This document shows, one piece after another, positions 18,129 to 56,637 of a stretch of 64,000 bases of DNA. Location of the stretch: positions 4,855 to 68,854 of the forward strand of contig DASYZR010000166.1 of the NCBI GenBank assembly GCA_035945995.1, given 5' to 3'. The position numbers were made by a program, and so were the translations under genes. A model generated the notes under the pieces. It had not been told where the DNA came from and made no database searches. It saw only the letters and a list, made by a program, of their open reading frames with translations. Origin of the DNA: a bacterium (GTDB taxonomy: Bacteria > Sysuimicrobiota > Sysuimicrobiia > Sysuimicrobiales > Segetimicrobiaceae). Position 1 is the first letter of the stretch. The number at the start of each line of letters is the position of its first letter.

Positions 18129-18132
18129 AGAC

Positions 18133-18396
18133 CTAGGGTTCAACGGCCAGCGGCGGCCCAAGGAGCTCCATGCCGTGGGCGCGCCAGAGCGCCGGGTCCT
18201 GCGGCGGCATTGCGTTGGCCCTCGTGACTTCGCGGAAGAACGCTTCCATCTTGCCGGCGGGCGTAAACGCGATCAGGATTTTGCCGCGCGAGTCACCGAC
18301 GTGCGCCCAGACATGGGGCACCTCCCGCGGCGCAAGCACAGAATCGCCCGGCCGCAGCGTGAACCGTTCCTGTCTGAGCAGCGGGGGATTCCGTGC
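18133..18396 (-). pseudogene. cupin-domain gene remnant (C-terminal half only)
   Basis: The minus-strand frame reads LRPGDSVLAPREVPHVWAHVGDSRGKILIAFTPAGKMEAFF, which is cupin motif 2. A stop sits immediately upstream and no motif-1 half is present. Only 343 bp separate the flanking genes. Confidence 0.4.
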
Positions 18397-18471
18397 TCAC
18401 CGACGCTGTCCTGCCCGCCCAGGCGAAAAAACTGAAGAGGCCATCCCGCCGGCAACGGGGAAAGATGTAGA

Positions 18472-20580: not shown

Positions 20581-20593
20581 GACGGTTGCCGGT

Positions 20594-22641
20594 ATGAGCC
20601 CGCGGACGCCTCGGCACGAGTCCGCCATGAAGGACCGACCCGGACGGGTCGCGATTGAGGGCGTGACGCCTGAGATCGACGGCGGGCGGTTCCCCGCGAA
20701 GCGGACCGCCGGGGACACCGTTGTCGTCGAGTGCGACGCGTTCGCCGACGGCCACGAGCTGCTGGCCGGTGTGCTGCGGTACCGGTGGGAGGGCGATGCC
20801 GTCTCGCGCGGGGGCTGGAGCGAGACGCCGCTCCTCCCGTTGGACAACGACCGCTGGCGGGGCATCTTTGTCGCGGCACGGGCCGGCCGGTACCGCTTCA
20901 CGGTGGAGGCGTGGGTCGATCCGTTTTCGACGTGGGCGCACGATCTCACCAGACGGGTCGAGGCGGGGCAGGACGTGCGGGTGGATCTGCGGATCGGCGC
21001 CGAGATGGTCCGGGCCGCGGCCGGGCGCGCGCCGAGCCGGCGGCGCGGGCCACAGACGCCCTCGGACCGTGCGCGGCTGACCGGGTGGGCCGGGCGTCTC
21101 GAGACGGGTGATGAGGAGGCGGTCCGGATGGCGCTCTCGGCGGAGCTGGCCGACACGATGCGCCGGCACCCCGCGCGGGACGGCGCGTCGCGCTACGCCC
21201 CCGAGCTCACCCTCGTCGTGGACCGTGAGCGCGCGCGCTTCGGCGCGTGGTACGAGATGTTTCCGCGGTCGACCTCGCCGGAGCCGGGCCGCCACGGCAC
21301 CTTTGCCGACTGCGAACGGCGCCTGCCGTACGTCGCCGGCATGGGGTTCGACGTGCTGTACCTGCCGCCGATCCATCCGATCGGCCGCGCGCACCGCAAG
21401 GGCCGCAACAACTCCGAGACGGCCGGTCCGGAGGACCCGGGGAGCCCCTGGGCGATCGGCGCCGCCGAAGGCGGCCACACCGCGATCCATTCCGACCTCG
21501 GGACGATCGACGATTTTCGCCGCCTCCTCGCGCGCGCCCGCGAGCACGGACTGGAGATCGCCCTCGATCTCGCGTACCAGTGCGCGCCGGACCATCCGTA
21601 CGTCCGCGAGCACCCGGAGTGGTTTCGCCGGCGGCCCGACGGCACCGTCCAGTACGCCGAAAACCCGCCGAAGAAGTATCAGGACATCTACCCGTTCGAC
21701 TTCGACTCGGACGACTGGCGGGGGTTGTGGAAAGAGCTCCTCGGCGTCGTGCGGTTCTGGATGCGCGAGGGCGTGCGCATTTTCCGCGTGGACAATCCCC
21801 ACACGAAGCCGTTCGCGTTCTGGCAGTGGTTGATCGCGGAGATCCACCGCACCGACCCCGACGTCATCTTCCTCGCGGAGGCGTTCACGCGCCCGAAGGT
21901 GATGTACCGGCTTGCGAAGGTGGGCTTCACGCAGTCGTACACCTACTTCACCTGGCGCACCACCAAGGCCGATCTGACGGCATACTTCACGGAATTGACC
22001 CGCCCCCCCGTGCGCGACTTCTTCCGGCCCAACCTCTGGCCCAACACGCCGGACATCCTCCACAAGTACCTCCAGGACGGGGGCCGGCCCGCGTTCGCGG
22101 TGCGCCTCGTGCTCGCGGCCACGCTCGGGGCGAACTTCGGCATCTACGGGCCGGCCTTCGAGCTCTTTGAGCACCGGTCGGCCGCCCCGGGAAACCCGCC
22201 CCCGGCCAGCGAGGAGTACCTCAACGCCGAGAAATACGAGATCAAGCGCTGGGACCTCGACCGGCCGGACAGCCTGCGCGGCCTGATCGCCCGCGTCAAC
22301 GCGATCCGGCGGGCCCACCCGGCGCTGCAGCGCGACGACACGCTCGTGTTTCATTCGGTGGACAACGACCAATTGCTCTGCTACAGCAAGACGGCGCCGG
22401 CTGGCGGCGCGGGGCAGGCAGGCGGCGCGGCGGTGCTCGTCGTCGTGAACCTCGATCCGGCGTTCGCACAGTCGGGTTGGACCACGCTGTCGCTGCCCGC
22501 CCTCGGCCTGGGTCCGGACGACCCGTATGCCGTGACGGACCTGCTGACGGACGCGCGCTACACCTGGCGCGGCCGGCGGAACTACGTCGTGCTGCGTCCG
22601 GCCGAGCAGCCGGCGCACATCTTTCGCCTGGACCGGGCGCC

Positions 22642-22645
<4 letters not shown>
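20594..22645 (+). CDS. glgE: alpha-1,4-glucan:maltose-1-phosphate maltosyltransferase
   Basis: Classic GlgE signature ([52 protein letters not shown]). 683 aa. Confidence 0.92.
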
Positions 22646-26127
<3,482 letters not shown>

Positions 26128-26131
<4 letters not shown>

Positions 26132-27981
26132 GCGACGGCACGCCGGGCGCCGTCCTGCTCCCCGGCGGCCGCTGCCGGTTCCGCGTTTGGGCGCCGCGGG
26201 CCAGCGCGGTCGAGGTGTACCTGGTCACCCCGCGCAGCCGGCGCGTCGCGCTCGCATCCTGCGACGGGGGCTACTACGAGGCCGTGGTCCCGGATGTCGA
26301 GGCCGGGGCGCGATACCGGTACGTGCTCGACGGCACGGTCGATTACCCCGATCCGGCGTCCCGCCTGCAGCCGGACGGCGTCCACGGGCCGTCGCAGGTC
26401 GTCGATGCGGCGTTTGCGTGGAAGGACGCCGGGTGGCGCGGGCTCCCGCTCGCAGAGTACGTCATCTACGAACTGCACGTCGGCGCGTTTTCCGCGGCGG
26501 GCACGTTCGACGGAGTGATGGGCGAGCTCGAGGCGCTCGCCGACCTCGGGGTGACCGCGATCGAGCTGATGCCGGTGGCGCAGTTTCCCGGCCGGCGCAA
26601 CTGGGGATACGACGCCGTGTATCTCTACGCCGTGCATCCGGAGTACGGCGGGGCGGAGGGGCTGAAGCGCCTCGTGGACGCCTGCCACCGCCGGGGGCTC
26701 GCCGTTGTGCTCGACGTCGTCTACAACCACCTCGGTCCCGAAGGGAACTACCTCGGAGCATTCGGCCCGTACTTTACGGACCGCTACCGGACGCCCTGGG
26801 GGGACGCGATGAACTTCGACGGCCCCGACAGCGATGCGGTGCGGCAGTTCGTGGTCGACAACGCGTGCTGGTGGGTCGAGGAGTTTCACGTCGACGCGCT
26901 GCGCCTCGACGCCCTCCACGCGGTCGTCGACCAGTCCGCGCGCCACATCTTCGAGGAACTGGCGGGCGCCGTCCACGACCGTGCGCGGGCGGCCGGCCGC
27001 GCGGTGCACGTGATCGCGGAGAGCGGTCTCAACGATCCGCGCCTGCTGCGGCCGCCGGACCGCGGCGGGTACGGCCTCGACGCGGACTGGAACGACGATT
27101 TTCACCATGCGCTCCACGCGCTGCTCACGGGCGAGCGAATGCGCTACTACATGGACTTCGACGGCGCCGCGGACCTGGCGCGGGCGTGGACCGACGGGTT
27201 CGTGCTCGCGGGCCGGTACTCGCCCTATCTCCGGCGCCGGTTCGGGGCGCCGTCGCTCGATATCCCGGCCGAGCGGTTCGTCGTCTTCGCCCAGAATCAC
27301 GACCAGGCCGGCAACCGGGCGCTCGGCGAGCGGCTGACGGCGCTCGTCGGGTTCGAGGCGCTCAAACTGGCGGCGGGGACGGTGTTGCTCTCGCCGTTCG
27401 TGCCGCTCCTCTTCATGGGCGAAGAGTATGGGGAGACGGCGCCGTTTCTCTACTTCACCGACCACGGGGACCCGGGCCTCGCGGCGGCCGTCCGGCAGGG
27501 CCGGTACGAAGAGTACCCGGAGAGTGAGCCGCCCGATCCCCAGTCGCCCGAGACGTTCGAACGGTCGCGGGTCGCGCGCGGCCACGCGCGCGAGCCGCGC
27601 CACCGCGTGCTGCTCGATCTCTATACCGCCCTGATCCGGCTGCGCAAGACGGATCCCGCGCTGGCCAACCTCAGCAAGGGAACCATGGACGTCCGCGTCT
27701 GGGACGACGCCCGCGTTCTCCTGGTCCGCCGCTGGCACGAGCGGAGCGCCGTCGTCGCCGCGTTCAATTTCTCCGCGTCTCCGGCGATGGTCGAGGCGGC
27801 GGTGCCGGCCGGCCCGTGGAAACTCGTGATCGACTCCGCGGACGCGCGGTGGGCCGGCCCCGGCCGCGCGGCGCCCGAGATCCTCGAGTCCCGCGGCACG
27901 GTGATGCTCACGCTCGCACCGTGGTCCTTCGCGCTGTTCGGGACGGACGTGGACCCGGGCGCCGAAGGAGGCCGCCCGTGA
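26128..27981 (+). CDS. treZ: malto-oligosyltrehalose trehalohydrolase (GH13)
   Basis: N-terminal E-set region (RFRVWAPRA) and a GH13_10 catalytic core (YELHVGAFSAAGTF, GVTAIELMPVAQFPGRRNWGYD, VLDVVYNHLGPEGN). The ATG overlaps the treS-mak stop as ATGA. Confidence 0.85.
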
Positions 27982-29036
27982 CCCCGGAACGCAAACCCGT
28001 TGTCGCGCTGACGTTCGGCGATCCGGCCGGGATCGGGCCGGAGCTCATCGCAAAACTCGTGGCGCGCGGCGATCCGGTGCGGCAGGCGACCGCCGTCGTG
28101 GTCGGCGACCGGTGGGTGTGGGACGACGGGCAGCGCGTGGCCGGCACGCGGACGGCGCTCCACGAGATCGCGTCCATCGCCGAGGCGCGGACCCGGGAGA
28201 AGCCGGGCGCACCGTTCTTCCTCCCGATCGACACCGTGACGCCGCACGACGTGCGGCGCGCAACGGCCACCGCCGGGGGCGGCGCCTCGGTCCTCCGCGC
28301 GCTGGCGATCTGCCTGGATGCCGCGCGCGCCGGCCAGATCGACGCGATCTGCTTTGCGCCCCTCAACAAGCTCGCGATGAAACAGGGGGGACTCGCCTTC
28401 GAGGACGAGCTGCACTTCTTCGCCGACTATCTCGGGGTACGGACCTACTTCTGCGAGCTCAACGTGCTGGACCCCGACGGCCGCGGGACAGGCGGGCTGT
28501 GGACCACGCGCGTCACGTCGCACATTCCGCTCCGGGACGTCGCCGCAGCACTCAGCCGCGACCGCATCAAGGACGCGGCCCGGCTGCTCTATCGCGCGCT
28601 CGAGGCGGCGGGGGTCGGGCGGCCGCGGGTCGCCGTGGCGGCCCTCAACCCGCACGCCGGCGAGGGCGGCACCTGCGGGCGGGAAGAGATCGACATCATC
28701 GAGCCGGCGGTGCGCGAGGCGCGCGCCGAAGGCCTCCCGATGGACGGACCGTTTCCGGCCGACACGATCTTTTTGCGGGCCCGCGCCGGTCTCTACGACG
28801 GCATTCTCACGATGTACCACGACCAGGGGCAGATCGCGATCAAGTTGATGGGCTTCGAGCGCGGGGTGACCGTCCAGGGCGGCCTGCCCGTCCCGATCAC
28901 CACGCCGGCGCACGGTACCGCGTTCGACATCGCCGGCCAGAACAAGGCCGGCGTAGAGGCGCTCACCCGGGCCTTCGCGATCGCCTGCCGGATGGGCGCC
29001 TCCAGCCGTGCCGCGGGAACCGTGCGCGCACCCTGA
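27978..29036 (+). CDS. PdxA family dehydrogenase (4-hydroxythreonine-4-phosphate dehydrogenase-like)
   Basis: PdxA signature regions (ALTFGDPAGIGPE, ALNPHAGEGG, YHDQGQIAIK). GTG start overlaps the treZ stop as GTGA. Confidence 0.85.
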   Translation: MTPERKPVVALTFGDPAGIGPELIAKLVARGDPVRQATAVVVGDRWVWDDGQRVAGTRTALHEIASIAEARTREKPGAPFFLPIDTVTPHDVRRATATAGGGASVLRALAICLDAARAGQIDAICFAPLNKLAMKQGGLAFEDELHFFADYLGVRTYFCELNVLDPDGRGTGGLWTTRVTSHIPLRDVAAALSRDRIKDAARLLYRALEAAGVGRPRVAVAALNPHAGEGGTCGREEIDIIEPAVREARAEGLPMDGPFPADTIFLRARAGLYDGILTMYHDQGQIAIKLMGFERGVTVQGGLPVPITTPAHGTAFDIAGQNKAGVEALTRAFAIACRMGASSRAAGTVRAP

Positions 29037-29076
29037 GACGCGGGTCGGCGGCGCCTTACCAGCGGGCCCGGCGTTC

Positions 29077-29709
29077 TTAGCCCAACGCCGCTTCCAACGT
29101 CCGGTTCAGTCCCGCCAATCGCTCTGCCGGCAGTCGCGCGATGAATTTATGCAAGGCCGCCGCGAGATCGGGAGCGTCGTGCTCCATCTCCTGCAGCTTG
29201 CCGGTCGATAGACGGTAGAACGTGCTGGGAGAGAGCGCAACCACCGACGCGGTGCGCACACCGCCGATGTACATGGGCACCTCGCCCACGACCGTGCCGC
29301 CGCGCATCGTCCGCAGACGCGTGATCCGGCCATCGGGCAACTCAACCTGGGCCGTCAACTGACCGGACTCGATGAAGTACATCGCGTCGGACGGATTGCC
29401 CTGCCGCACGAGATAGTCGCCTTCGCCCACCTGGTGCTTCTCGAGATACGTCATCAACCGGTAGTTGACGACGAACAGCACAATCGCCACCACCACGCCC
29501 ATGCCCACACCTGCCAGAAAGTTCACCGCGCCGACGGCGGCGAGAATCAGCAGCACCAGCACATAATCGGTGCGCGGCAGTTTGAACCACGCGTCGTACA
29601 GCCACTCCACGAGGAACGAGAGGCCGAGAAAAAAGAGAAAACCGCCCAGTACCGGTTTGGGGAAGAATGACAGGAGCCCTGCGCCGAAGAAGAGCACAGC
29701 GGCGCACAC
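29077..29709 (-). CDS. membrane protein with a C-terminal cyclic-nucleotide-binding domain, probably a truncated SulP-like transporter
   Basis: The N-terminal about 100 aa contain two or three TM helices. The C-terminal cNMP-binding fold reads GEGDYLVRQGNPSDAMYFIESG...RTMRGGTVVGE. The hydrophobic frame stays open upstream of the GTG start with no upstream ORF, suggesting the N-terminal transporter part has been lost. Confidence 0.6.
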   Translation of the reverse strand: MCAAVLFFGAGLLSFFPKPVLGGFLFFLGLSFLVEWLYDAWFKLPRTDYVLVLLILAAVGAVNFLAGVGMGVVVAIVLFVVNYRLMTYLEKHQVGEGDYLVRQGNPSDAMYFIESGQLTAQVELPDGRITRLRTMRGGTVVGEVPMYIGGVRTASVVALSPSTFYRLSTGKLQEMEHDAPDLAAALHKFIARLPAERLAGLNRTLEAALG

Positions 29710-30024
29710 GGCGGCCGCGAAGAGCCGGCCAGCCGGCTGTTCGCTCCCAAACGGTATGCCAGGGCCGACAGGCTCAGCGTGTGGTAGCCGCGAGATTGGC
29801 CAGGCCCGCCGATTCGAGTTCGCGATTCAGATCGGTGTCCTGACGGATCGTCAATTCGAGTCCACTGGGATCCCTGTGAGGAAAGCAACCGTAGTTCGGG
29901 TGCGTGTACTCCGGCACGCATGGTCGAGGGCAACGTCGCATCGTCAGGCTTGTTATGCGGTTTCTAGTACCTTCCTGTACCCTGATTACCGCCTCTTACC
30001 ACACAACTCGTTGGCACGACATTA

Positions 30025-30060
30025 GCAAAAGGCCGGGCGGCTGTGGCGACCGCCCGGCCT
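30025..30060 (-). terminator. rho-independent terminator (10-bp GC stem GGCCGGGCGG/CCGCCCGGCC, 9-nt loop, followed by UUUUGCU on the minus strand)
   Basis: Perfect inverted repeat seen directly in the sequence, about 20 nt downstream of the small ORF's stop codon. Confidence 0.5.
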
Positions 30061-30078
30061 CGTGGAGCAGCCTGTCGC

Positions 30079-30267
30079 CTACGCCCTACGACTCCAAGGC
30101 CACCGCACGTTCCCGAAGGCGAGCCACAGGCCGAAGGGGATGAGGATGGCATCGGTTGTCAGGTTGATTACCCCGAGTGTCCCGCCCGGCTTCGGAATCC
30201 AGACGTAGACGCCTATAGCCAGAGCAAGCCATCCCCTTACGTCTTTCAGACCAAGGGACATCTTCAT
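30079..30267 (-). CDS. small hydrophobic membrane protein (62 aa)
   Basis: Product MKMSLGLKDVRGWLALAIGVYVWIPKPGGTLGVINLTTDAILIPFGLWLAFGNVRW. AGGGGGGG ribosome-binding site 8 nt upstream. Start is 16 nt downstream of the secreted-protein gene, and the terminator follows. Confidence 0.45.
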   Translation of the reverse strand: MKMSLGLKDVRGWLALAIGVYVWIPKPGGTLGVINLTTDAILIPFGLWLAFGNVRWPWSRRA

Positions 30268-30283
30268 GGCCGACCCCCCTGCC

Positions 30284-31066
30284 TTAATGGGATGCGCCGG
30301 CTTCGTGCGTGGCGGCGCCGGCGAGATCGGATAACCCCTTGCCCAAGAGAAACAATCCGCCCATGATTTGGTTAATGGTAACGGGCGAACTTGACGGAAA
30401 GGAGATGCCCATGACCCCCATCGCCAGAATGATTTCCGAGTAGCCAACGAATGACTGACCGACATTCCAAAGTGAGATGGAGCCGCAGCACGGGTCCAAC
30501 GCATTTCCGCCGCCTTGGGCGAAAAGGTCCACCGGCTTGTCGCAACTGTAGCAGCCAGCGCCACCCTGGTATGACGGGTCTGGGTCCAGTTCCAGCGGAC
30601 CCGTGTTGAAGTTGCCCACCTGAGCCAACTCTTCCTCGGCTACGACATGCAGCCCCGAGCCATTGAGGAACGCGACGATGGATCGGGTGCAGTCCGCGCC
30701 GCGTGCGAGGATGAGGCGGTGACCGAGGAAGATGAGATACCGTCGATACATCTTCGCGGCATAAGCCGTGATCGCCGGCCGAGCGTCGGATGACATGAGG
30801 AAGGCGTTTTCGTTTGGTGCGATGCCGCGCTGCTTCGCGTAGTGCTGCGTCGCCTTATTAAGCGCGAGTAGCGCAACCGCGTTCCGCAGCGTCGTTTTCT
30901 CATCGGGACTGATGCAGCCGGCGCGTCCCTTGGCTGCCTCGAAGTCCGACTGGGCCTGTGCGGGCGTAATCGTGAGAATCGCCGCAGAACCTGCCTGCGC
31001 CAAGGGAACCGTCACTGCGACCGCCACGAGCACTATCCCAACGAGTAATTTCCGGGCCATACGCAT
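30284..31066 (-). CDS. secreted hypothetical protein (Sec signal peptide; Cys- and Gly-rich C-terminal region)
   Basis: Signal peptide MRMARKLLVGIVLVAVAVTVPLAQA|GS. AGGGGGAGG ribosome-binding site upstream. Lower-GC coding sequence with real-protein composition. No recognisable domain. Confidence 0.6.
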   Translation of the reverse strand: MRMARKLLVGIVLVAVAVTVPLAQAGSAAILTITPAQAQSDFEAAKGRAGCISPDEKTTLRNAVALLALNKATQHYAKQRGIAPNENAFLMSSDARPAITAYAAKMYRRYLIFLGHRLILARGADCTRSIVAFLNGSGLHVVAEEELAQVGNFNTGPLELDPDPSYQGGAGCYSCDKPVDLFAQGGGNALDPCCGSISLWNVGQSFVGYSEIILAMGVMGISFPSSSPVTINQIMGGLFLLGKGLSDLAGAATHEAGASH

Positions 31067-31231
31067 CCTCCCCCTCTTTCCGGCGAGGGCCGGGAATGAT
31101 AGCGGCCCGATGATACGGACAGTCTGCCGGGGAGGCAGTCAAGGTGGAGACACATAGACCGTCGCGTGCGAGACAAGAGCACGATGCAAATCGAACGTTA
31201 CGACGCCGGGCGCCGGAACGGGTTGGGAACC

Positions 31232-31864
31232 TCATAAGGCTGCCGGGGAAAGAATTTTGATGGCGCCTCCCCGCAACTCGACGACGCCGGCGCGCCGGAG
31301 TGCCATGAGCGCTGAGTTCACGCGCTGGCGGCTCGCCCCGGCGAGCGCCGCCAGGTCGCCCTGCGTCAGGTGCAGGGACGCCGGTCGCCCGTCGGCGAGC
31401 TCGCGTTCCGCCAGCGTCTGCAACGTGCGTCTGACGCGCACGGCGAGGCCTTCCAGCGCCAACGTCTCGGCGTGACCGGCAAGAAAGCGCACGCGATCGC
31501 TGAGATAATTCATGATCGCGAGCGCGACGGCGGGGTCGGCGCGCAGGGCACGTTGAACCTCGCCGACCGGCAGGCCCTGCACCGTGGATTCCACCGTCGC
31601 GCGGCACGAGGACTCGCACGGCCCTCCGCGGATCGCGTTCTCCAGTCCGACCAGGCCGCCCGGCCCCACCCAATCCGTGGCGATGTACGATCCGTCCTCG
31701 CGTTCCGACACGAGAATAAGGCCTCCGGCCTGCACGCGAAAGACATAGCTGCTGGGATCACCGTCGCGCGTCAGGAATTCGCCCTTGCGGAGGGCGCGTC
31801 TTCGCAGGCGCGAAGCGCAGTTCGGCCCGAACAACATCGCGGCAACGGCAGTCGAGTTGGTCAT
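31232..31864 (-). CDS. Crp/Fnr family transcriptional regulator
   Basis: N-terminal cNMP-binding domain and a C-terminal helix-turn-helix (TQGDLAALAGASRQRVNSALMALRRAGVV). Confidence 0.85.
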   Translation of the reverse strand: MTNSTAVAAMLFGPNCASRLRRRALRKGEFLTRDGDPSSYVFRVQAGGLILVSEREDGSYIATDWVGPGGLVGLENAIRGGPCESSCRATVESTVQGLPVGEVQRALRADPAVALAIMNYLSDRVRFLAGHAETLALEGLAVRVRRTLQTLAERELADGRPASLHLTQGDLAALAGASRQRVNSALMALRRAGVVELRGGAIKILSPAAL

Positions 31865-31991
31865 CGTCGCGCCAGGCCGGCCCCGACCGCATCCCTGTGA
31901 GACGTGACTGCTCGGGTATCGTTTGCGAACGAGCGGGGGTGGATTCCTTCAGACGATTACTAGTAGCGGGGCTTGCGATCGTCCGCCGGAT

Positions 31992-34115
31992 TTAGCCCGT
32001 GGCGTCCGCCACCCCGGCGTGGGTCGTCTGCTCCCAGGGTGTCCCGGCGGGGAGCGCGAGCTCCCAGCGGAGCACCAGCATCGCCCCCTGGTGATTCCGC
32101 TCGAGCCCGGCCTCCGAATTCGAGATCGTGAAGACGGGGAGGCTCCAGACGTCCGCGGGCCGCTCGAGGGCGAACGCAAGCCTGAGGCCGGAGTACGTCT
32201 CGCCGGCGTGCACGCCGGTGGTCGGGGGGAGATCCGCCGGCTCCCACAACGAGACGCGCGTCCCGTCCGCTGCGGCCCACACCTGCTCCGGTCCCCCGAA
32301 CAGCCCGAGGCTCCACTGTTCCGCGAGCACGGCGCGCAGGACGCCCGGCCCATCCCACATGAGACGCACGGCGTGGGTGAGCCCCCGGCGGCGTATGTCC
32401 ACCTCGATCCGGCGCCCGAGGGTCACCTGCCCCTCGCCAACCGGCGCGCGCCGTGTCAGCGCGGCCGCGGCGCCCGTCCCGGTCTCCTCGAGACGCCACG
32501 CGTACCGGCCGGAGCCGAATCCGCCCAGATCCTCCGCGGTGTCGCGCCACGCTTCGTCGCGCAACACCTCCGCCGGCCAGAGCCACGTTCGCATGGTCGC
32601 CCGGCGCACGCGATCGTACATGAGCAGCCGTTCGAGGCCCGGTTCCTTGGCGTGGTCGCCCGCCGCGTGAATCGAGACGGCTCCCTCGATCGGAGGCGCC
32701 TCGTGGCGCACGCGCGCATGGTAGGCTTCCGCCCGCCTCGTCAGCACGTTGCCGAGATGACGCCGCGCGGTCCGATCGTCCCACTCCACGACGCTGCCGC
32801 CCCGCGCCGGGTCCACCGTGCACACGTCCAGCTGGGTGGCCAGGTACAGTTCGGGCTGCCCGTCCCCGTTGAGGTCTTCGGCCGACGTCTCGGCGTACGG
32901 TTCCGGGTGCCGGATGAGGTCCGCGTCCGCTTCCGCGGCAATGAGGCGCTCAAACGCCGCGCTCCGAATGTGCGGCAGATAGATGCCGCCGAAGACGCCG
33001 TGCCAGTAGGTGCAGTTGCACTCGCCGCTCCAGAGCTCATCGAGCGCCCGCTCCCGGTCCGGCCCGGGCGGCATCGCGTGGACCTTGCGTCCGGCGCGGA
33101 GCGCCAGGTGGTGCAGCGTGTTGGCCTCCGGATATCGCACGAGGAAGTGCCGCCAGAATCCGCCGCGCACCAGCGACGCGAGGTCCTCGCGGCCCCCGGT
33201 TTCGAGGTCGTGCCGGAAGGTCGCCCGCGCCTCGGCGCGCTGCGGCGGGAGCGCCCATTCCGCCATCTCGTCGTACGTGGCCGTCGGCAGGTAGATCGCG
33301 CCGGCCGGGTCGTGGGTGCGCCGGTAGTCGCCCGGAGGCACCACGTCGATCCACGGCGTCGCCTCCAGCGTGTCGAAGAACCGATCCACCCACCCGCGCT
33401 CCCAGCAGTGCGCGTACGTGGTCGGCCACATCCCGAACTTCTCCCCGTCGTCGCCCATCAACGCGAGATCGAGCGGCGCGTCGCGGCCCTCCGGCCGGAC
33501 CTCCGTCTCCGCGAGCGTGCGGAGGTAGGCCACGACGTCCTCCGGCGACACCCACGGAATGAGATACCGCAGGCGCCGGAGGCTCGGGAACAGCGCGAGC
33601 GAGACGCCCTCCTCTTCGGTCACGTAATAGCCGAGCAGTTGTCGGTCTTCGAGCCCGACGGCGTGGAAGTGCGAGTCATCGACGATGGTGTACTTCACGC
33701 CGGCCTCGCCGAGCGGGCGCGCCAGATGCGGCTCCCAGACGCGCTCGGCCAGCCATAGCCCGTCCGCGGAGTACCCGAACCCGTCCCTGATCGCGCGCGT
33801 CATCTTCACGATCTGGCCGCGCTTGTCCGCGTCGGGCACGATCGGGAGGATCGCCTCGTAGTAGGCGCCGGTGAGCATCTCGATCTGTCCGCGCGCCACG
33901 AGCGCCCGCAGCCGCGCGATGAGCTCGGGGCGGTGCGCGCGCAGCCAGTCGAGCAGCGGGCCGGAATAATGCAGCGCGAGGCGGATGCCGGGGTGGCGCT
34001 CGAGCGAGGCGATCATCGGCGCGTACGATCGCTCGGTCGCCTCCGCGAAGACGTGGTCGAAGTTGCCGACCGGCTGGTGGTTGTGCAGCGCCAGGGCGAG
34101 TGCGAGCCGATGCAT
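31992..34115 (-). CDS. glycoside hydrolase family 57 protein (4-alpha-glucanotransferase / alpha-amylase type)
   Basis: Canonical GH57 motifs LALHNHQP, GQIEMLTGAYYEAILP and LMGDDGEKFGMWP. 707 aa. Confidence 0.9.
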   Translation of the reverse strand: MHRLALALALHNHQPVGNFDHVFAEATERSYAPMIASLERHPGIRLALHYSGPLLDWLRAHRPELIARLRALVARGQIEMLTGAYYEAILPIVPDADKRGQIVKMTRAIRDGFGYSADGLWLAERVWEPHLARPLGEAGVKYTIVDDSHFHAVGLEDRQLLGYYVTEEEGVSLALFPSLRRLRYLIPWVSPEDVVAYLRTLAETEVRPEGRDAPLDLALMGDDGEKFGMWPTTYAHCWERGWVDRFFDTLEATPWIDVVPPGDYRRTHDPAGAIYLPTATYDEMAEWALPPQRAEARATFRHDLETGGREDLASLVRGGFWRHFLVRYPEANTLHHLALRAGRKVHAMPPGPDRERALDELWSGECNCTYWHGVFGGIYLPHIRSAAFERLIAAEADADLIRHPEPYAETSAEDLNGDGQPELYLATQLDVCTVDPARGGSVVEWDDRTARRHLGNVLTRRAEAYHARVRHEAPPIEGAVSIHAAGDHAKEPGLERLLMYDRVRRATMRTWLWPAEVLRDEAWRDTAEDLGGFGSGRYAWRLEETGTGAAAALTRRAPVGEGQVTLGRRIEVDIRRRGLTHAVRLMWDGPGVLRAVLAEQWSLGLFGGPEQVWAAADGTRVSLWEPADLPPTTGVHAGETYSGLRLAFALERPADVWSLPVFTISNSEAGLERNHQGAMLVLRWELALPAGTPWEQTTHAGVADATG

Positions 34116-34138: not shown

Positions 34139-35740
34139 TCACGCGTCGTCCTCGCCGGCGGCGGCTTCGTCCCCTCGCGGCGACCGACCGGCGGCCGCCG
34201 TCTCGGACGCATGGTCGGCCACGCTGCCGGAGGGCATGTACAGCACGACGGCCGCGAGCCCCAGCGCGACGAACCCCAGTCCCAGCACGAAGGCGCCGTG
34301 GATCCCTTGGGCCAGCGCCTGCCGGAGCACTTCGTGTCCCGCCGGACCCAGCCGCGCCTGCGATCCCGCATCGAGCATCGCCTGCGGGTCGCCGATCGTG
34401 GGCAGGCCGAGCCGCACGCGCGCCGGCAGGTGCGCCAGCCGCGCGTCGAGGATGCCGACCAGCACCGCGCCCTGCGCGCTCACGCCGATCGCGCTGCCGA
34501 GATTGCGCGTAAAGATGTTGATCGACGTGACGATGCCCCGCAGCGGGCGCGCGACCGCGTTCTGCATCGCGATGATGAACATCGTCGCCGTGAGCCCCAT
34601 GCCGCTGCCCAGCACGATCATGTCGGCAAAGACGACGGTGGCCGTCGCGTGGACGTCCAGGCGCGTCAGGAGCAGCGACCCGGCGGCCAGCAGGGTCATC
34701 CCGCCCGTGGTCACCGGCCGGTAGCCCCACAGGAGCGCGAGGCGGCCGCCCACGATGCTCGACACGGTCCACATCACCATGTAGGGCATCAGCGCTTCCC
34801 CGGCGGTCGTGGCGCTCTTGCCGGTCACGGCCTGGACGAACAGCGGCACGTACGCCGTGGTCCCAAAAATACTTATGCCCAGCAGGAACCCGCCGAGGCA
34901 CGCCACGGCGATGATCCGGTTGCGGAACAGGCTGAACGGCAGGAACGGCTCTTCGGCGCGCATCTCTACGCGCGCGAAGAGCAGCAGGAGCGCCACGCAG
35001 AGGACGGCCAGCCCGGCCGCCTGCACGGAGAGCCACGCGAACTCGTGGCCGCCCCAAAACATCAGCAGCAGCAGGACGATCGAGGCGGCGGAGAGCAGGC
35101 TGATGCCGGCGTAGTCGATCGACGCGCGGGCGGCGGTCCTGGACTCGTGGAACGCCAGCGTGAGGATCAGCGTCGCGACGAGACCGGCCGGCACGTTGAT
35201 GAAGAAGATCCACCGCCACGCCCCGTGGTCGGCGAGAGCGCCGCCGACCAGGGGCCCGACGACGGCGGCGAGGCCCCACACCCCGCTGAACATGCCCTGG
35301 ATGCGCAGCCGCTGTTCGAGCGGGAAGAGGTCGGCGATGATCGTGAGCGCGATCGGGAGGACCGCGCCGCCGCCGATGCCCTGCAGCAGCCGGAAGAACA
35401 CGAGCTGCCCCATCGATTGCGAGAGCCCGCAGAGCGCCGAGGCCCCGATGAAGCCGAGGATGCCGATCAGGTACACGCGCTTGCGGCCGTGGATGTCCGC
35501 GAGGCGGCCGAAGATCGGCGTCGTCACCACAAAGGCGATCTGGTAGGCCGCGAAGACCCACGAGTAGAGGGCCAGGCCGCCGAATGCGCCGACGATCGTC
35601 GGCAGGGCCGTCCCCACGGCCGTGGCGTCCATCGCCGCGAGGAACATGCCGAGCATCGCCGCGACCGTGACGACGGCCCGGCGGCTCGGCGCGGGCGATC
35701 CGGCCTCGTCGCGGCCGCGGCCGGCGGTTACGACAGCCAT
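34139..35740 (-). CDS. MFS transporter (DHA2-like, 14 TM)
   Basis: Lower 533 aa of the run-on ORF 34139..36994. Has MFS motifs (GRLADIHGRKRV, LQGIGGGAVLP). Start MAVVTAG overlaps the glcE stop by 13 nt. Confidence 0.85.
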   Translation of the reverse strand: MAVVTAGRGRDEAGSPAPSRRAVVTVAAMLGMFLAAMDATAVGTALPTIVGAFGGLALYSWVFAAYQIAFVVTTPIFGRLADIHGRKRVYLIGILGFIGASALCGLSQSMGQLVFFRLLQGIGGGAVLPIALTIIADLFPLEQRLRIQGMFSGVWGLAAVVGPLVGGALADHGAWRWIFFINVPAGLVATLILTLAFHESRTAARASIDYAGISLLSAASIVLLLLMFWGGHEFAWLSVQAAGLAVLCVALLLLFARVEMRAEEPFLPFSLFRNRIIAVACLGGFLLGISIFGTTAYVPLFVQAVTGKSATTAGEALMPYMVMWTVSSIVGGRLALLWGYRPVTTGGMTLLAAGSLLLTRLDVHATATVVFADMIVLGSGMGLTATMFIIAMQNAVARPLRGIVTSINIFTRNLGSAIGVSAQGAVLVGILDARLAHLPARVRLGLPTIGDPQAMLDAGSQARLGPAGHEVLRQALAQGIHGAFVLGLGFVALGLAAVVLYMPSGSVADHASETAAAGRSPRGDEAAAGEDDA

Positions 35741-37104
35741 CCCAACCGTCCCGGGACCATGATGCTCCGCGGATCGTATTGCGCCCGCAGGCGGCGCATC
35801 AGGTCGACGGCGGGCGGCGCGGCTCCCCACACCGGCAGGCGCGGCTTGAGCGCGGGCGGCGCGACTTCGACGACGGCGTAGCCCTCGGGCGCGTCCGGTA
35901 CTTGGCCGTCGGCGGCCCGCCCGAGGGATTCGGCCAGCGCCGTCGCCCGGTCCGGCCCGGCCGCCACGTAGGTGAGTCCGATACCGGCGTGCGCCAGCAC
36001 CGCGGCGGGCGGATCCCCGGGGACCGCGTGGGCCGCGCCGGCGACGTCGATCCATCGCGTGATCGGCGTACCGACGCGGAAGACGACGCCGCCCGGATGC
36101 GTGGCGGGCGACGGAAATCCTGCCACGGCCCGCCACAGCGCCTCGTGCGCCGCGCCGGAGTGCACCTCGAGGACGGCGTCCGGCCCCCCGGCGGCCGCGG
36201 TCAGCGCGCGCATCTCCTCGACGTGGCGCCGGCGGCTCTCTTCGAGGCCTTCGGCCAGGAGCAGCACCCCCCATCGCCCGGCCCGCGCCTCGATCCCCGC
36301 GGCCCGCCCCAGCATGACGAGGGTTTCCGGGCTCGCGGCCTCGAGCGCGGAGGGGAGCAGGTACGACCGCATCACCGCGGTGGTGAGCGCGTGCGCCGCC
36401 GCGGCGCTCGGCAGGGTGACGAGGACCGTTACGCCGTCGCCGGGCAGCGGCAGGATCTTGAACGTCACGTCGGTGATGACCCCGCACGAGCCGAGCGAGC
36501 CGATGAACAACTTGCCGAGGTCGTACCCGGCGACGTTCTTCACGACCTTCCCGCCGGCCTTGATCACCTCGCCCGTGGGCAGCGCGACGCGGATGCCGAT
36601 GACGAGATCGCGGATCGCGCCCCACAAGAGGCGGCGGGGACCGTTGCGGTTCGCCGCGACGAGGCCGCCGATCGTGGCCGCCTCCGCGCCGGGCGGATCG
36701 AGCGGGAGCCACTGCCCGTTCGCCGCGAGGGCCCGCTGCACGTCGCGGAACGGCGTGCCGGCGCGGACCGCGACGACGTAGTCGGCCGGCGTGTAATCCG
36801 TGATCCCGGTGAGGCGCGTCGTCTCGATGACGAGGTCGGCGCGCTCGGGTGGATTGCCGAGATGCTGGTGCGCCCCGCCGCCGCGCGGGATCACGCCCGC
36901 GTTGGTGTCCGCGGCTGCGGTCAGGAGGGCGGCGACCTGCTCGGGATCCGCGGGCGCCGCCCCCAGCGCGGGGCGTACGCCGTCGATCTGCCATCCGTCA
37001 AGGCGGCCCGGGTCTGTGGTGACGTGGGCGTCCCCGACGATGCCGCGGACGCGCGCGGCCAGGGCGCCGCCGACCGCGTCTTGGGTGTGAGACACGCCGG
37101 TCAC
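35728..37104 (-). CDS. glcE: FAD-binding oxidoreductase, glycolate oxidase subunit GlcE-like
   Basis: FAD-binding PCMH domain (GVIPRGGGAHQHLG). GTG start overlaps the glcF stop as GTGA. Confidence 0.8.
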   Translation of the reverse strand: MTGVSHTQDAVGGALAARVRGIVGDAHVTTDPGRLDGWQIDGVRPALGAAPADPEQVAALLTAAADTNAGVIPRGGGAHQHLGNPPERADLVIETTRLTGITDYTPADYVVAVRAGTPFRDVQRALAANGQWLPLDPPGAEAATIGGLVAANRNGPRRLLWGAIRDLVIGIRVALPTGEVIKAGGKVVKNVAGYDLGKLFIGSLGSCGVITDVTFKILPLPGDGVTVLVTLPSAAAAHALTTAVMRSYLLPSALEAASPETLVMLGRAAGIEARAGRWGVLLLAEGLEESRRRHVEEMRALTAAAGGPDAVLEVHSGAAHEALWRAVAGFPSPATHPGGVVFRVGTPITRWIDVAGAAHAVPGDPPAAVLAHAGIGLTYVAAGPDRATALAESLGRAADGQVPDAPEGYAVVEVAPPALKPRLPVWGAAPPAVDLMRRLRAQYDPRSIMVPGRLGWLS

Positions 37105-38468
37105 GCCGGGCCGGGCGGCCCCGGGGCGCGCTCCGGATCGCCGGCGGCGTACGCCCGGTCGAGCAGGTCCACGACGTGGCAGGCTTCCATCGGCAGGCCC
37201 CGGGCGCGGATGCCGGCCGCGAGCTGCAGGAGGCATCCGGGGTTCGGGGCGACGAGGAGATCGGCGCCGGTCCGGGCGACGGCGCGCATCTTCTCCTCGA
37301 GAATCTGCCGCGAGTAGCCGGGCTGCACTACGTTGTAGATGCCGGCGCTGCCGCAGCAGCGGTCGGCCCCCTCCATCTCGACCAGCTCGAGCCCGGGGAT
37401 GCGGCGCAGCAGATCGCGCGGCTCGCGGCGGATGCGCTGGCCGTGGGCGAGGTGGCAGGGGTCCTGATAGGTGGCGCGCGCCCGGATCTCACCGAGGGAG
37501 CCGGTGAGGCCCAGGTCGGCGAGGAACTCCGTCGCGTCCCGGCACAGCCGGCTGTACGCGTCCGCCCGCGCCATGTACGCCGGGTCGTCGTCGCGGAACA
37601 GCACCGGATATTCCTTGCTCGCGACCCCGCAGCCCGCCGCGTTGATGACCACGGCGTCGACGCCCGCGCGCAGGAACACCTCGATGTTCCGGCGGGCCAT
37701 CTGCTGCGCGGCCGTGCGTTCGCCGTTGTGGATGTTGAGGGCGCCGCAGCAGGTCTGCTCCCGCGGGACGACGACCTCGCACCCGTTCCGCCGCAGCACG
37801 CGCACGGTGGCCTCGTTCGCCCCCGGAAAGAGGACGCTCATCGCGCAGCCGCTCAAGAAGCCCACGCGCGCGCGCCGCGGCCCGATCGCGGGGAAGACTT
37901 CCTGCGCCGGCGCAAACGGGGCATCCGGGACTTCCGGCAGCAGGGCTTCCATTTCTCCGAGCCGCTTCGGCATGAGGTGCAGCCGGCGGAGCGCGCGGCC
38001 GAGCCCGCTCCGCTGGTAGAGACGGAGCAGCCCCGCCGCGGCGCGCAGCCGCCGGGGGTGCGGCATCAGGTGCCGCAGCGCCGCGAGCGTTACGCGGCGG
38101 GCCAGCGGCGAGCCGGTGGGGCCGATCTCCGCGCGCGCCGCTTCGATGATCGTGCCGAAGTGGACGCCGGCGGGGCAGGCGGTCTCGCAGGCGCGGCAGC
38201 CGAGGCAGACGTACATGTGCTCCTCGAGCCGCGCATCGATCGGAATGCGTCCCTGCGCCGCGGCCTCGATCAGATGGATCCGGCCGCGCGGCGACTCGGT
38301 CTCCACGCCCAGCATCCGGTACGTCGGGCACGCCGGCAGGCAGAACCCGCACTGAATGCACTTGTCGAGCTCCGGGATCAGCAGCCGCGGGATCGGCTGG
38401 GCGGCCGCCCGGCCGTGCGGGCCGCCGTCACGCGGCGCGGTCCTGCCTGCGCGGGCGGGGGACGCCAT
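37101..38468 (-). CDS. glcF: (Fe-S)-binding protein, glycolate oxidase iron-sulfur subunit GlcF-like
   Basis: Two 4Fe-4S ferredoxin Cys clusters (CIQCGFCLPACP, CLGCRACETACP) and CCG domains (CCGSAG). The listed ORF extends spuriously upstream; the ATG at 38468 lies 6 nt after the glcD stop. Confidence 0.85.
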   Translation of the reverse strand: MASPARAGRTAPRDGGPHGRAAAQPIPRLLIPELDKCIQCGFCLPACPTYRMLGVETESPRGRIHLIEAAAQGRIPIDARLEEHMYVCLGCRACETACPAGVHFGTIIEAARAEIGPTGSPLARRVTLAALRHLMPHPRRLRAAAGLLRLYQRSGLGRALRRLHLMPKRLGEMEALLPEVPDAPFAPAQEVFPAIGPRRARVGFLSGCAMSVLFPGANEATVRVLRRNGCEVVVPREQTCCGALNIHNGERTAAQQMARRNIEVFLRAGVDAVVINAAGCGVASKEYPVLFRDDDPAYMARADAYSRLCRDATEFLADLGLTGSLGEIRARATYQDPCHLAHGQRIRREPRDLLRRIPGLELVEMEGADRCCGSAGIYNVVQPGYSRQILEEKMRAVARTGADLLVAPNPGCLLQLAAGIRARGLPMEACHVVDLLDRAYAAGDPERAPGPPGPA

Positions 38469-38473
38469 CGCGC

Positions 38474-39946
38474 TCAGATCCACAACCCCGACGCCGCAAG
38501 GCGCGGCGGGCGGCGGGTGAGGAGTTCCCCACAGGAGACGGGGGTCGGGAACACCTTGAAGGGGTTCATGCAGTCCTCCGGGTCGAACGCCGTCTTCAGC
38601 CGCCGCTGCGCGCCGAGGTCGGCCTCGGTGAAGATCCACGGCATGTAGTTGTTCTTTTCGAAGCCGATGCCGTGCTCTCCGCTCAAGGTCCCGCCCGCCG
38701 CCACGCACGCGGTGAGCATCTCCTCGCTGGCCCGCATCACCCGCTCGGTTTCCCCGGGGGCCGCCGCGTCGTAGGGGATGAGCGGGTGCAGGTTGCCGTC
38801 GCCGGCGTGAAACACGTTGGCGACCCGGATGCCGTGGCGCCGCGCGATCTCGACGATCTGATGCATGATCGCCGGCAGTTGGCTCCGGGGGACGACGGCG
38901 TCGTGGAGGAAGTAGTTGGGGGCCAGGCGCCCCATCGCCCCGAACGCGCCCTTGCGGGCCGCCCAATACAGAAGCCGTTCCTGGTCGGTCCGCGCCGTGC
39001 GGACCTCACGGGCGCGATTCGCGCGGCACAGGTCCTCGACGGTGCGGGTGCACCGTTCGAGGCCTTCCCGGACGCCCTCCACTTCGATCAGCAAGACCGC
39101 GCCCGCGTCGAGGGGGAGCCCCGCGTGCACCGCGGGCTCGACGGCCTGCGCCGTGAGCTGGTCGATCATCTCGAGCGAGGTGGGCCCGATACCCGAGGCG
39201 ATGATGTCCGCCACGGCCTGGCTGGCGTCCTCGATCGTCTCGAAGATGCCGAGCATCGTCCGGACCGTCTCGCGGCGCCGCAGCAGCCGGACGGTCGCGG
39301 CCGTCACGATGCCGATCGTGCCCTCCGACCCGACGGCGAGGCCGGTGAGATCGAGCCCCGGCTCGTCCGGCCCACGGCCGCCCAGCCGCGCGACCGAGCC
39401 GTCCGCCAGCACCATCTCGAGCCCGAGCACGTGGTTGGTCGTCACGCCGAAGGCGAGCGTGTGCACGCCGCCGCTGTTGTTGGCCACGTTGCCGCCAATG
39501 CTGCACGCGGACTGGCTGCTCGGGTCGGGCGCGTAGAAGTACCCGTCGCCCTCGACCGCGCGCGTGACGTCGAGGTTGATCACGCCCGGCTGCACGACCG
39601 CGGTCCGGTTCTCGAGGTCGACGGCGAGGATCCGGCGCATCTTGCTCATCGCGACGACGATGCCGCCGATCGGCGTGATCGCCCCGCCGGACAGCCCGGT
39701 GCCCGAGCCGCGGGCCACGAGGGGGACGCCGAACCGGCCGGCCGCGCGCACGAGGGCGGCCACGTCGTCCGTCGACTCGGGGAACACGACGAGGTCCGGC
39801 AGGGCGGCCAGGACCGACCCGTCGTACTCGTAGGCCAACAGGTCGACCGGCTGCGCGAAGACCCGCTCCCGGCCCAGCGCGTCGACGAGGGCGCCGATGA
39901 GGGCGTCGCGGTCGGCAATACGGCAGCGCAACTCGGCGAGGCTCAC
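38474..39946 (-). CDS. glcD: FAD-linked oxidase, glycolate oxidase subunit GlcD
   Basis: FAD-binding domain (GSGTGLSGGA) and a C-terminal oxidase domain. 490 aa. Confidence 0.9.
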   Translation of the reverse strand: MSLAELRCRIADRDALIGALVDALGRERVFAQPVDLLAYEYDGSVLAALPDLVVFPESTDDVAALVRAAGRFGVPLVARGSGTGLSGGAITPIGGIVVAMSKMRRILAVDLENRTAVVQPGVINLDVTRAVEGDGYFYAPDPSSQSACSIGGNVANNSGGVHTLAFGVTTNHVLGLEMVLADGSVARLGGRGPDEPGLDLTGLAVGSEGTIGIVTAATVRLLRRRETVRTMLGIFETIEDASQAVADIIASGIGPTSLEMIDQLTAQAVEPAVHAGLPLDAGAVLLIEVEGVREGLERCTRTVEDLCRANRAREVRTARTDQERLLYWAARKGAFGAMGRLAPNYFLHDAVVPRSQLPAIMHQIVEIARRHGIRVANVFHAGDGNLHPLIPYDAAAPGETERVMRASEEMLTACVAAGGTLSGEHGIGFEKNNYMPWIFTEADLGAQRRLKTAFDPEDCMNPFKVFPTPVSCGELLTRRPPRLAASGLWI

Positions 39947-56615: not shown

Positions 56616-56637
56616 CCCGGCGCTCGCCCGGCGCGAG

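Follow-up and report, generated by a model that had tools for sequence, protein, structure and literature searches.

A segment of 2955 bp (29037..31991) was delimited in contig DASYZR010000166.1, within a stretch of 64 kb that was analysed as a whole and is called the window here. Two genes converge on it with their 3' ends, PdxA (stop at 29036, plus strand) and a GH57 4-alpha-glucanotransferase (stop at 31992, minus strand). The segment holds four open reading frames (ORFs), all on the minus strand, at 29077-29709, 30079-30267, 30284-31066 and 31232-31864. Three of these encode a Crp/Fnr-family regulator, an exported protein and a small membrane protein, a triad which is closed by an intrinsic terminator, and the fourth is part of a decayed SulP transporter gene. 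The ORFs, ribosome-binding sites and terminator of an initial annotation of this DNA were all found where it had placed them. The segment is very probably an acquired or variable islet with boundaries at 29037-31991, and the triad is probably one functional unit. Judging from the sequence searches, this module is a very rare, uncharacterised and patchily distributed family without domain or fold assignment.

The first gene of the triad (31232..31864, minus strand) encodes a transcription regulator of 210 amino acids. As in the Crp/Fnr regulators GlxR, Mtb Crp, Vfr and the Clr-like proteins, both family domains are present at full length, the cNMP-binding barrel (PF00027; 2.2e-10, 40.8 bits with a cut-off of 27.5) and the Crp-type helix-turn-helix (PF13545, HTH_Crp_2; 1.2e-12, 48 bits with a cut-off of 27). 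The best solved relatives are generic Crp/GlxR/Vfr proteins (PDB E 9e-11), and the protein stays far under every NCBIfam equivalog cut-off. The alignment to 7pza is co-linear and, as a sequence alignment only, places a Cys at the expected cAMP phosphate-binding Arg and shows the Gly-Glu motif shifted. The Cys in place of the canonical Arg and the displaced Gly-Glu motif would set it apart from the regulators named above, and its cyclic-nucleotide pocket does not look canonical from the aligned residues. An N-terminal FNR-type Cys cluster was looked for in the regulator and not found. In two homologous loci, L001 and L003 (L numbers designate loci or contigs, P numbers proteins), the regulator has 'GRSSRA' at the position of the phosphate-binding Arg. 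The regulator of the window is 54-55% identical to the products of these two Crp genes, which lie directly upstream of a homologous gene pair. The intergenic region between the Crp gene and the exported-protein gene (31067..31231, minus strand) contains, as read from the sequence, a GAGGGGGAGG ribosome-binding site and small palindromes. A sigma-70 promoter scan of this region returned no consensus match.

The second gene (30284..31066, minus strand) is an ORF of 260 amino acids. Its GGAGG motif adjoins the first ATG and lies 6 nt ahead of the second one. Since the motif touches the first ATG, the probable start is the second ATG at 31060, giving a protein of 258 amino acids. This agrees with independent gene calls on contigs of sister strains and with the N-termini of the homologues; NCBI calls the large gene at 247 amino acids from a different start. 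In the numbering of the 260-aa ORF, four parts can be distinguished. Residues 1-25 (30992-31066) form a predicted Sec-type signal peptide with a basic n-region, a 16-residue hydrophobic core and an AQA/GS cleavage site; the hydropathy peaks over residues 1-18 and the N-terminus is conserved in homologues. A conserved alpha/beta N-domain follows at residues ~35-150 (30617-30964), predicted with pLDDT (predicted local distance difference test) values of 75-85 as three helices and a three-stranded sheet. It contains Cys51 and Cys126, the latter being invariant and the former being present in every family member that covers its position, and a Cys51-Cys126 disulfide is plausible. The linker at residues 151-197 is rich in Gly, contains a CC motif and is predicted to be disordered. 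Finally, residues 198-260 (30287-30475) comprise a moderately hydrophobic hairpin of two small-residue-rich helices and a Gly-rich tail. Identity to the closest homologues amounts to 54-56% in the N-domain and only 25-30% in the C-terminal region.

Relatives of the exported protein are scarce. A search of 5.8 billion clusters gave only three at E<=0.01, one of which is the same protein in an NCBI metagenome-assembled genome, and a family-profile search of all 1.84 billion representatives gave 12 clusters. No homologue was found in the GTDB species representatives. A metagenome scan recovered only further copies of loci already known, and the alignment of the whole family proved too divergent to scan loci with. 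Searches of Pfam, NCBIfam, PHROGs and PADLOC with the exported protein, the 62-aa protein and 13 family members returned nothing above noise, and a PDB fold search with the exported protein gave no significant match. A hit of the family profile to microplusin in a PDB search (E = 0.07) was treated as chance. The initial annotation had recognised no domain in the secreted protein, which is borne out by these blank results in the family libraries and in the sequence and fold searches of the PDB; a housekeeping domain in particular, which would have spoken against its reading, was not found. P0033 (L023 1-2984), a distant family member of 232 amino acids, ends in an ...SAGDRER tail as do the proteins of L001 and L003. 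Its contig has a lower GC content (60.5%), the other ORFs being small basic and Ala/Pro-rich ones, and P0033 is not followed by a two-helix partner; this context could be phage-like.

The third gene (30079..30267, minus strand) follows the stop codon of the exported-protein gene at a distance of 16 nt, has an AGGGGGG ribosome-binding site and encodes a two-helix membrane protein of 62 amino acids. An identical protein is encoded on 20 sister-strain contigs. The small protein carries the signature (D)WR - helix - (I/L)PKPGG - N..(T)DAIL..(G)LWL..WP - basic tail, which recurs in the products of the small genes that follow the big gene in L001, L003, L017, L021, L022 and L108. The possibility that it is a paralogue of the C-terminal hairpin of the exported protein was rejected (hhalign probability 0.3%, E = 0.2). 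Downstream, the triad is closed by an intrinsic terminator (30025..30062, minus strand), consisting of a 13-pair G+C-rich hairpin (30029-30061) with a 7-nt loop followed by UUUU. A simple terminator scanner missed this hairpin; the 71-nt stretch folds at -37.9 kcal/mol, with z = -3.19 against shuffles. Elsewhere, a homologue of the small protein, P0007 (72 amino acids; L015 658-876), lies between two TPR genes with no exported-protein gene beside it and may be an orphan partner gene. In L021 (7286-7468) and L108 (2062-2265) a second small hydrophobic ORF of 60-67 amino acids follows the two-helix partner, for which the Crp-type loci, including the window, have no equivalent.

The same gene order recurs in other lineages. 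In L001/L002/L016 and in L003, the Crp gene (54-55% amino acid identity to that of the window) is followed in the same order and orientation by a homologue of the exported protein (48-52%) and a 71-aa membrane protein (39-48%). L017/L018 have an uncalled Crp ORF of 210 amino acids, followed by a homologue with 39% identity and a partner of 66 amino acids. L021 and L108 are more distant, and there the pair stands after a divergent pair of XRE regulators. Based on this recurring order, the conserved core consists of the regulator, the exported protein and the two-helix partner. Adjacency of the big and the small gene is kept in at least 7 loci, with a 4-bp overlap in L108. Identities of the triad between the window and the other lineages are 39-55%, and the contexts, beside genes for HD and HD-MFS (major facilitator superfamily) proteins, are unrelated to that of the window. 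These neighbours, an HD membrane protein of ~410-450 amino acids and an HD(HD_5/HDOD)-MFS fusion of ~840-850 amino acids, adjoin the module in four loci (L001 5170-9086, L003 1674-5545, L017 2379-6168 and L019 3442-7253); both were searched for in the window and are absent from it. In L001, the module is followed ~2.5 kb downstream by an HTH_3-TPR gene.

This conservation bears on whether the ORFs are real genes. High-GC DNA is rich in spurious ORFs, and the differing NCBI start (247 amino acids) might be taken as a sign that these frames are open by chance, in DNA that is non-coding or degraded. We regard this as a negligible possibility, given that motifs and gene order of both proteins are conserved in at least 7 divergent loci, that differences between strains are synonymous and that a common terminator follows the two genes, each of which has a good ribosome-binding site. 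All differences in the exported-protein gene between the window and its sister strains (3/3) are synonymous, so this gene appears to be maintained, and the intact triad looks selectively maintained.

The islet also stands out by its composition. The initial annotation had reported an island of about 57% GC at 29700-31250. The dip is real, whereas its depth over this interval is 61.5%; same-length windows outside the segment have a mean of 70.9% (standard deviation 1.9, minimum 65.6%). In 300-bp windows, the GC content is 0.57-0.63 across ~29.1-31.3 kb, with the lowest value (0.567) at 30200-30499, against 0.70-0.76 in the flanks. The 1-kb bins of 29001-31000 (0.633 and 0.614) are the two lowest among the 64 in the window, and the whole variable segment has 63.6% against 70.9%. 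The genes deviate as well: the GC content at third codon positions (GC3) is 0.72 for the 260-aa ORF and 0.73 for the 62-aa ORF, and 0.81 for both the Crp gene and the cNMP fragment of the transporter, compared with 0.87-0.91 for the flanking TreZ, PdxA and GH57 genes and 0.885 +/- 0.042 for 32 long ORFs elsewhere in the window. A GC3 of 0.72 is thus ~3.9 standard deviations under the genes of the window. Sliding GC and codon analysis, as proposed in the initial annotation, therefore confirm a compositional anomaly, the strongest in the window. Far milder dips occur over 1.55 kb from 55501 (~55501-57050), with the next-lowest GC of 65.6%, and in the bin 18001-19000 (66.7%).

The limits of the islet follow from its relatives. 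The order MFS-GH57-[gap]-PdxA-TreZ-TreS/Mak is retained in GTDB relatives that have 81-86% identity in GH57. DNA homology to three of these (L024, L025 and L030) ends at ~29002-29006 and at ~32005-32023, so that the variable segment extends over 29037-31991 and includes the Crp gene and the SulP remnant; the limits of 29700-31250 were corrected accordingly. The Crp/Fnr gene had been taken as a flank of the island. Its conservation together with the pair, and its position within the segment that has no counterpart in relatives, assign it to the module. At the GH57/PdxA junction, where the window has 2955 bp with the triad and the SulP remnant, L030 has an empty gap of 92 bp, L025 a gap of 435 bp with one secreted ORF of 75 amino acids, and L024 a gap of 1052 bp with an unrelated cNMP-binding ORF of 156 amino acids and a secreted ORF of 77 amino acids. 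The 75-77-aa secreted ORFs encode a coiled coil (AEDVAKLRRSLEEVRAQLAALNRRLNAIEEQLNSMQK-like), and the cNMP-binding protein of L024 stands alone; this cargo is located at L024 10362-11118 and L025 ~10140-10370. In four more distant relatives, the position is occupied by ArsR/ArsM-like genes, by an MFS transporter, or by VIT1-like and PNPOx-like genes. The cargo differs in every genome examined, which marks the junction as a hot spot of turnover, and none of the seven relatives examined (0/7) holds any homologue of the island genes.

Horizontal acquisition, as suggested in the initial annotation, is thus supported by the empty site in relatives (gaps of 92, 435 and 1052 bp without island homologues), by the atypical composition and by the occurrence of the module in unrelated contexts. 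Syntenic orthologues with the same GC, which would have argued for an old resident, were absent from all seven relatives. From the gaps in relatives, acquisition appears the parsimonious reading. Alternatively, the segment might be ancestral and have been lost in relatives, its lower GC being due to weak expression or relaxed codon selection. Since the GH57/PdxA or GH57/TreZ cargo differs in each relative, turnover including loss is frequent; moreover, in L001 too the module and HD genes have a lower GC3 than their flanks, which is possibly intrinsic to the genes. Against this, every island gene is missing in 7/7 relatives examined, the nearest triad homologues are only ~50% identical and lie in other genomic contexts, no homologue occurs among the GTDB species representatives, and the GC3 of the pair departs strongly from that of the window. 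An ancestral segment is therefore considered very unlikely.

Two points do weigh against acquisition. The first is that gain and loss were told apart by parsimony over seven relatives rather than on a rooted genome phylogeny. The second concerns the route of arrival. The initial annotation had proposed to look for a nearby integrase or tRNA; no tRNA is present in the 64-kb window and no integrase or transposase at the locus, which is surrounded by genes for alpha-glucan enzymes, for an MFS transporter and for glycolate-oxidase-like proteins. Nor were flanking repeats found around the segment, none of whose parts is repeated elsewhere in the window, and plasmid and phage collections gave no match to it. 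Of the usual marks of a genomic island, the atypical composition and the absence at a conserved site are thus seen here, and the integrase, tRNA or direct repeat is not.

The left part of the segment is a SulP-STAS-cNMP transporter pseudogene (29077..29866, minus strand), traced by tblastn with the intact homologues P0015 and P0010. Its 210-aa ORF (29077-29709) matches cNMP_binding at 1.7e-16, and the homologues of this ORF are SulP transporters with Sulfate_transp, STAS and cNMP domains. Upstream pieces of SulP coding sequence lie at 29783-29872 in frame -1 and from 29724 to ~29795 in frame -3, and the last membrane helices lie in frame -2 from 29461 to ~29715. At the VNY/RLM junction (29460/29461) ~177 codons (STAS) have been deleted, leaving the cNMP-binding domain at 29080-29460 within the 210-aa ORF. 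In total, the remnant has two frameshifts, and the 5' ~235 codons, which were searched for across the whole 64-kb window including beyond the module, are absent. In a blastn comparison with L014, it aligns in two blocks of 87% and 81% identity that skip 524 bp of L014 and end at 29866. The Pfam Sulfate_transp profile scores 12.1 bits (cut-off 23.2) over its last ~50 positions. An intact Sulfate_transp domain followed by STAS is therefore not found, and the gene is a pseudogene of SulP descent: 81-87% identical to SulP anion transporters with STAS and cNMP domains, from which it differs in being 5'-truncated, twice frameshifted, without STAS and shrinking in sister strains.

This last point can be seen on the sister-strain contigs, which are 99.4-100% identical to the window. 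Five of them (L004-L008) have an extra 131-bp deletion in the cNMP domain (29165-29295), most have a 12-bp indel at 29786, and the substitutions in the transporter remnant are all non-synonymous (4/4). The SulP gene is in free decay and still losing sequence. The closest full-length homologue (L014 971-3019) is itself split over four reading frames on its contig, which is either an assembly error or another pseudogene, and it has a GC content of 61% against 69% in the neighbouring enolase-superfamily gene.

According to the initial annotation, the island interrupts a transporter gene and includes about 300 bp without ORF. The former is not supported, because the missing 5' half is nowhere in the window and the remnant lies within the variable segment. 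Of the latter, 29710-29866 proved to be frameshifted SulP sequence, and only the spacer 29867..30024, between the terminator and the pseudogene breakpoint, has no match to the L014 SulP gene, the other module loci, the rest of the window or any Rfam family. In its strict form, the earlier scenario supposes a SulP-cNMP gene that was resident or acquired earlier and lost its 5' half to the inserted cassette. The breakpoint at 29866 is indeed only ~160 bp from the terminator of the module, the GC3 of the remnant (0.81) lies between core (0.89) and module (0.72), and the intact-length SulP homologue of L014 is not linked to the module, which points to separate histories of the two parts. Nevertheless, the absence of the 5' ~235 codons from the window means that no simple insertion took place, and the two frameshifts and internal 177-codon deletion are unrelated to the module. 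Because half of the gene is missing from the window and a SulP gene at the site is found in none of the relatives, the strict insertion scenario is rated unlikely. Acquisition beside a dying pseudogene remains the preferred reading, and as a genome feature such a small gain is an ordinary kind of gene gain. Its empty site, pseudogene anatomy and ongoing deletions in sister strains make it a clean record of gene gain and decay, documented here in an uncultured and unclassified lineage.

Next, the module's own history was followed by comparing its homologous loci. Between L001 and L017, the HU and PFOR flanks are 75-82% identical at the amino acid level, compared with 39-44% for HD, HD-MFS, Crp, big and small proteins. 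Between L001 and L003, the Crp (92%), big (86%) and small (68-70%) proteins are close and the adjacent HD (47%) and HD-MFS (57-58%) proteins are not. The HD and HD-MFS genes thus diverge as fast as the module, at 39-58% where flanks have 75-82%. Between L021 and L108, the DNA of the regulators is 80-97% identical and that of the big and small pair 35-60%, indicating on these identities that the whole pair is replaced behind conserved regulators. A decayed copy of the module is found in L019 (7254-8672; GCA_035945255.1) and L020, with no Crp gene and a ~750-bp low-GC non-coding stretch. There, the 5' end of the big gene is gone; at the 3' end, its reading frame continues into the second half of the small gene, and the fused product is P0028.

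The comparison of L001 and L003, two alleles of ~94% identity, reveals a hypervariable stretch of ~55% identity across the pair. Starting at the Crp gene and up to codon ~195 of the big gene, their DNA is 93-97% identical; identity then falls to 48-65% over ~330 bp (L001 10720-11040) and recovers to 77-95% over the remaining small gene and downstream. The stretch takes in the part of the big protein that follows the CC motif (its last ~60 residues), the spacer, and the N-terminal ~33 residues of the small protein. Synonymous divergence (dS) is 0.21-0.25 for Crp, signal peptide, N-domain (0.22) and linker, whereas the C-terminal region reaches ~2.0 and the small gene 0.89, and omega is 0.12-0.30 throughout and ~0.16 in the hypervariable stretch. 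From these values, the stretch looks like an old divergent allele of two segments within a recently shared background. In this one allele pair, the alignment shows the hairpin of the big protein and the first helix of the small protein to co-vary. A conserved N-terminal part combined with a C-terminus that varies together with the adjacent gene, as would be expected of a polymorphic toxin, is thus seen between L001 and L003.

Around the islet, the window carries housekeeping genes in a conserved alpha-glucan/trehalose cluster (18472-34115). It starts with a GH57-like protein that has a TrkA_C domain, an unusual combination (18472-20580), followed by the GlgE maltosyltransferase (20594-22645), a TreS-maltokinase (Mak) fusion (22477-26031), a TreZ-like CBM48 amylase (26074-27981) and the PdxA-like gene (~27978-29036, plus strand). 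On the other side of the islet lies the GH57 4-alpha-glucanotransferase (31992-34115, minus strand), beyond which an MFS transporter and then glycolate-oxidase-like FAD and Fe-S genes (35728-39946) follow. The latter are adjoined by a homologue of APH(6)-type aminoglycoside/hydroxyurea-resistance kinases (39983-40891, minus strand; PF04655 8e-42).

Concerning function, the initial annotation had noted a resemblance to toxin/immunity or bacteriocin-like modules. An export signal is predicted on the putative toxin, and the small membrane protein is encoded directly downstream with a shared terminator. The hypervariable stretch over both proteins lends the resemblance indirect support, and no homology to a known family was found for it. 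Because the hairpin and helix-1 segments vary together between alleles, the pair is most likely cognate. In the proposed mechanism, the regulator would switch on the pair, the big and small genes would be co-transcribed and the transcript would end at the strong terminator. The large protein would then be exported, its N-terminal alpha/beta domain, probably disulfide-bonded, being kept outside the cytoplasm, and its small-residue-rich C-terminal hairpin would enter a membrane. There, the first helix and loop of the 62-aa inner-membrane protein might recognise the hairpin. Physical pairing of the hairpin with the small protein seems marginally probable. That the two proteins form a cognate effector and protector (a bacteriocin-like membrane toxin and its immunity protein) or an allele-specific recognition pair is a serious possibility, just short of probable, and an antagonistic toxin/immunity function as such is more doubtful. 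If cognate recognition is true, the module would be a minimal toxin/immunity or self-recognition system that depends on Sec, and its two proteins would be a convenient model of how helices recognise each other allele by allele in membranes; otherwise it is simply another orphan accessory operon.

Several observations count against cognate recognition. The hypervariable stretch is known from one allele pair, and its omega of ~0.16 points to an imported old allele, so that positive selection is not demonstrated. The C-terminal helices are only borderline hydrophobic in the protein of the window (KD19 1.2-1.5). P0028 was considered as a Rosetta-stone fusion of the two partners and rejected, as the L019 copy without Crp gene, signal peptide and gene start is a decayed one. 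For the regulatory step, alignment and palindrome searches for a shared Crp operator gave locus-specific palindromes only. Library and PDB searches also found no homology to bacteriocin, immunity, defence or secretion families and folds. With no homology or fold match, it is on architecture and evolutionary pattern that any function has to be argued.

Another possibility might be that the module is a non-antagonistic envelope system, in which the large protein is a membrane-tethered extracytoplasmic sensor or structural protein and the small one a stabilising or signal-relaying partner. In a variant of this, the partner might feed back on the adjacent regulator, like the membrane-bound SdpI sequestering SdpR in Bacillus. 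The pair is always accompanied by a dedicated regulator (Crp at four loci and two XRE regulators at each of two others), the best-conserved part is the extracytoplasmic N-domain and not the hairpin, and signalling-type HD and HD-MFS membrane proteins are neighbours in four loci. The SdpI family, with 3-12 transmembrane segments, offers a precedent for a membrane partner that can serve both as protector and as signal transducer (PMC2910880). On the other hand, local hypervariability over both proteins and whole-pair replacement are less typical of housekeeping parts of the envelope than of loci involved in conflict or recognition, and the family is very rare, patchy and sometimes decayed. An envelope role is, all in all, rather unlikely. 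Returning to the reading as a cognate pair, it could even represent an undescribed class, namely a Sec-exported, allele-specific membrane effector of uncultured soil bacteria, in which the conserved extracytoplasmic domain would deliver or anchor the hairpin, and the first helix of a ~60-aa two-helix protector would match the hairpin's specificity, both segments moving jointly in a ~330-bp cassette. This is a speculative proposal which we hold to be improbable at present; if true, it would be a minimal polymorphic toxin/immunity or kin-recognition system without specialised secretion machinery, behind interchangeable Crp/XRE switches.

Among known systems, the SdpC/SdpI/SdpR system of B. subtilis likewise combines an exported disulfide-containing protein (the disulfide being inferred here), a membrane partner that would protect or signal and a regulator in a small, patchy accessory locus. 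It has no sequence or fold similarity to the module; the partner here has ~62 amino acids and 2 helices, the regulator is of the Crp or XRE type and not ArsR, and no processing genes are present at the locus in the window. According to work on Proteus mirabilis, variable subdomains overlapping predicted membrane helices set the allele-restricted binding of IdsD, a ~1000-aa substrate of the type VI secretion system (T6SS), and IdsE, a protein of 312 amino acids (PMC4471559). These are encoded by adjacent genes too, and here the hairpin of the exported protein and helix 1 of the small protein fall into the variable stretch. There is no homology between the two systems, and no T6SS genes are nearby in the window. 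In polymorphic toxins such as Cdi, Rhs and colicin, an N-terminal region is conserved, and a variable C-terminal toxin domain is exchanged as a cassette together with the immunity gene. The module differs from these in its plain Sec signal, in a variable part that is a ~60-residue hydrophobic hairpin rather than an enzymatic domain and in a partner of which only the first half varies, as seen in a single allele pair; no T5SS, T6SS or T7SS (type V, VI or VII secretion system), Rhs, VENN, PAAR or toxin domain was found in the exported protein or its neighbours. It agrees with them in that the N-terminal two-thirds are conserved and identity drops sharply, with saturated dS, from the C-terminal ~60 residues into the small gene, and replacement of the whole pair and a decayed copy are found for the module as well.

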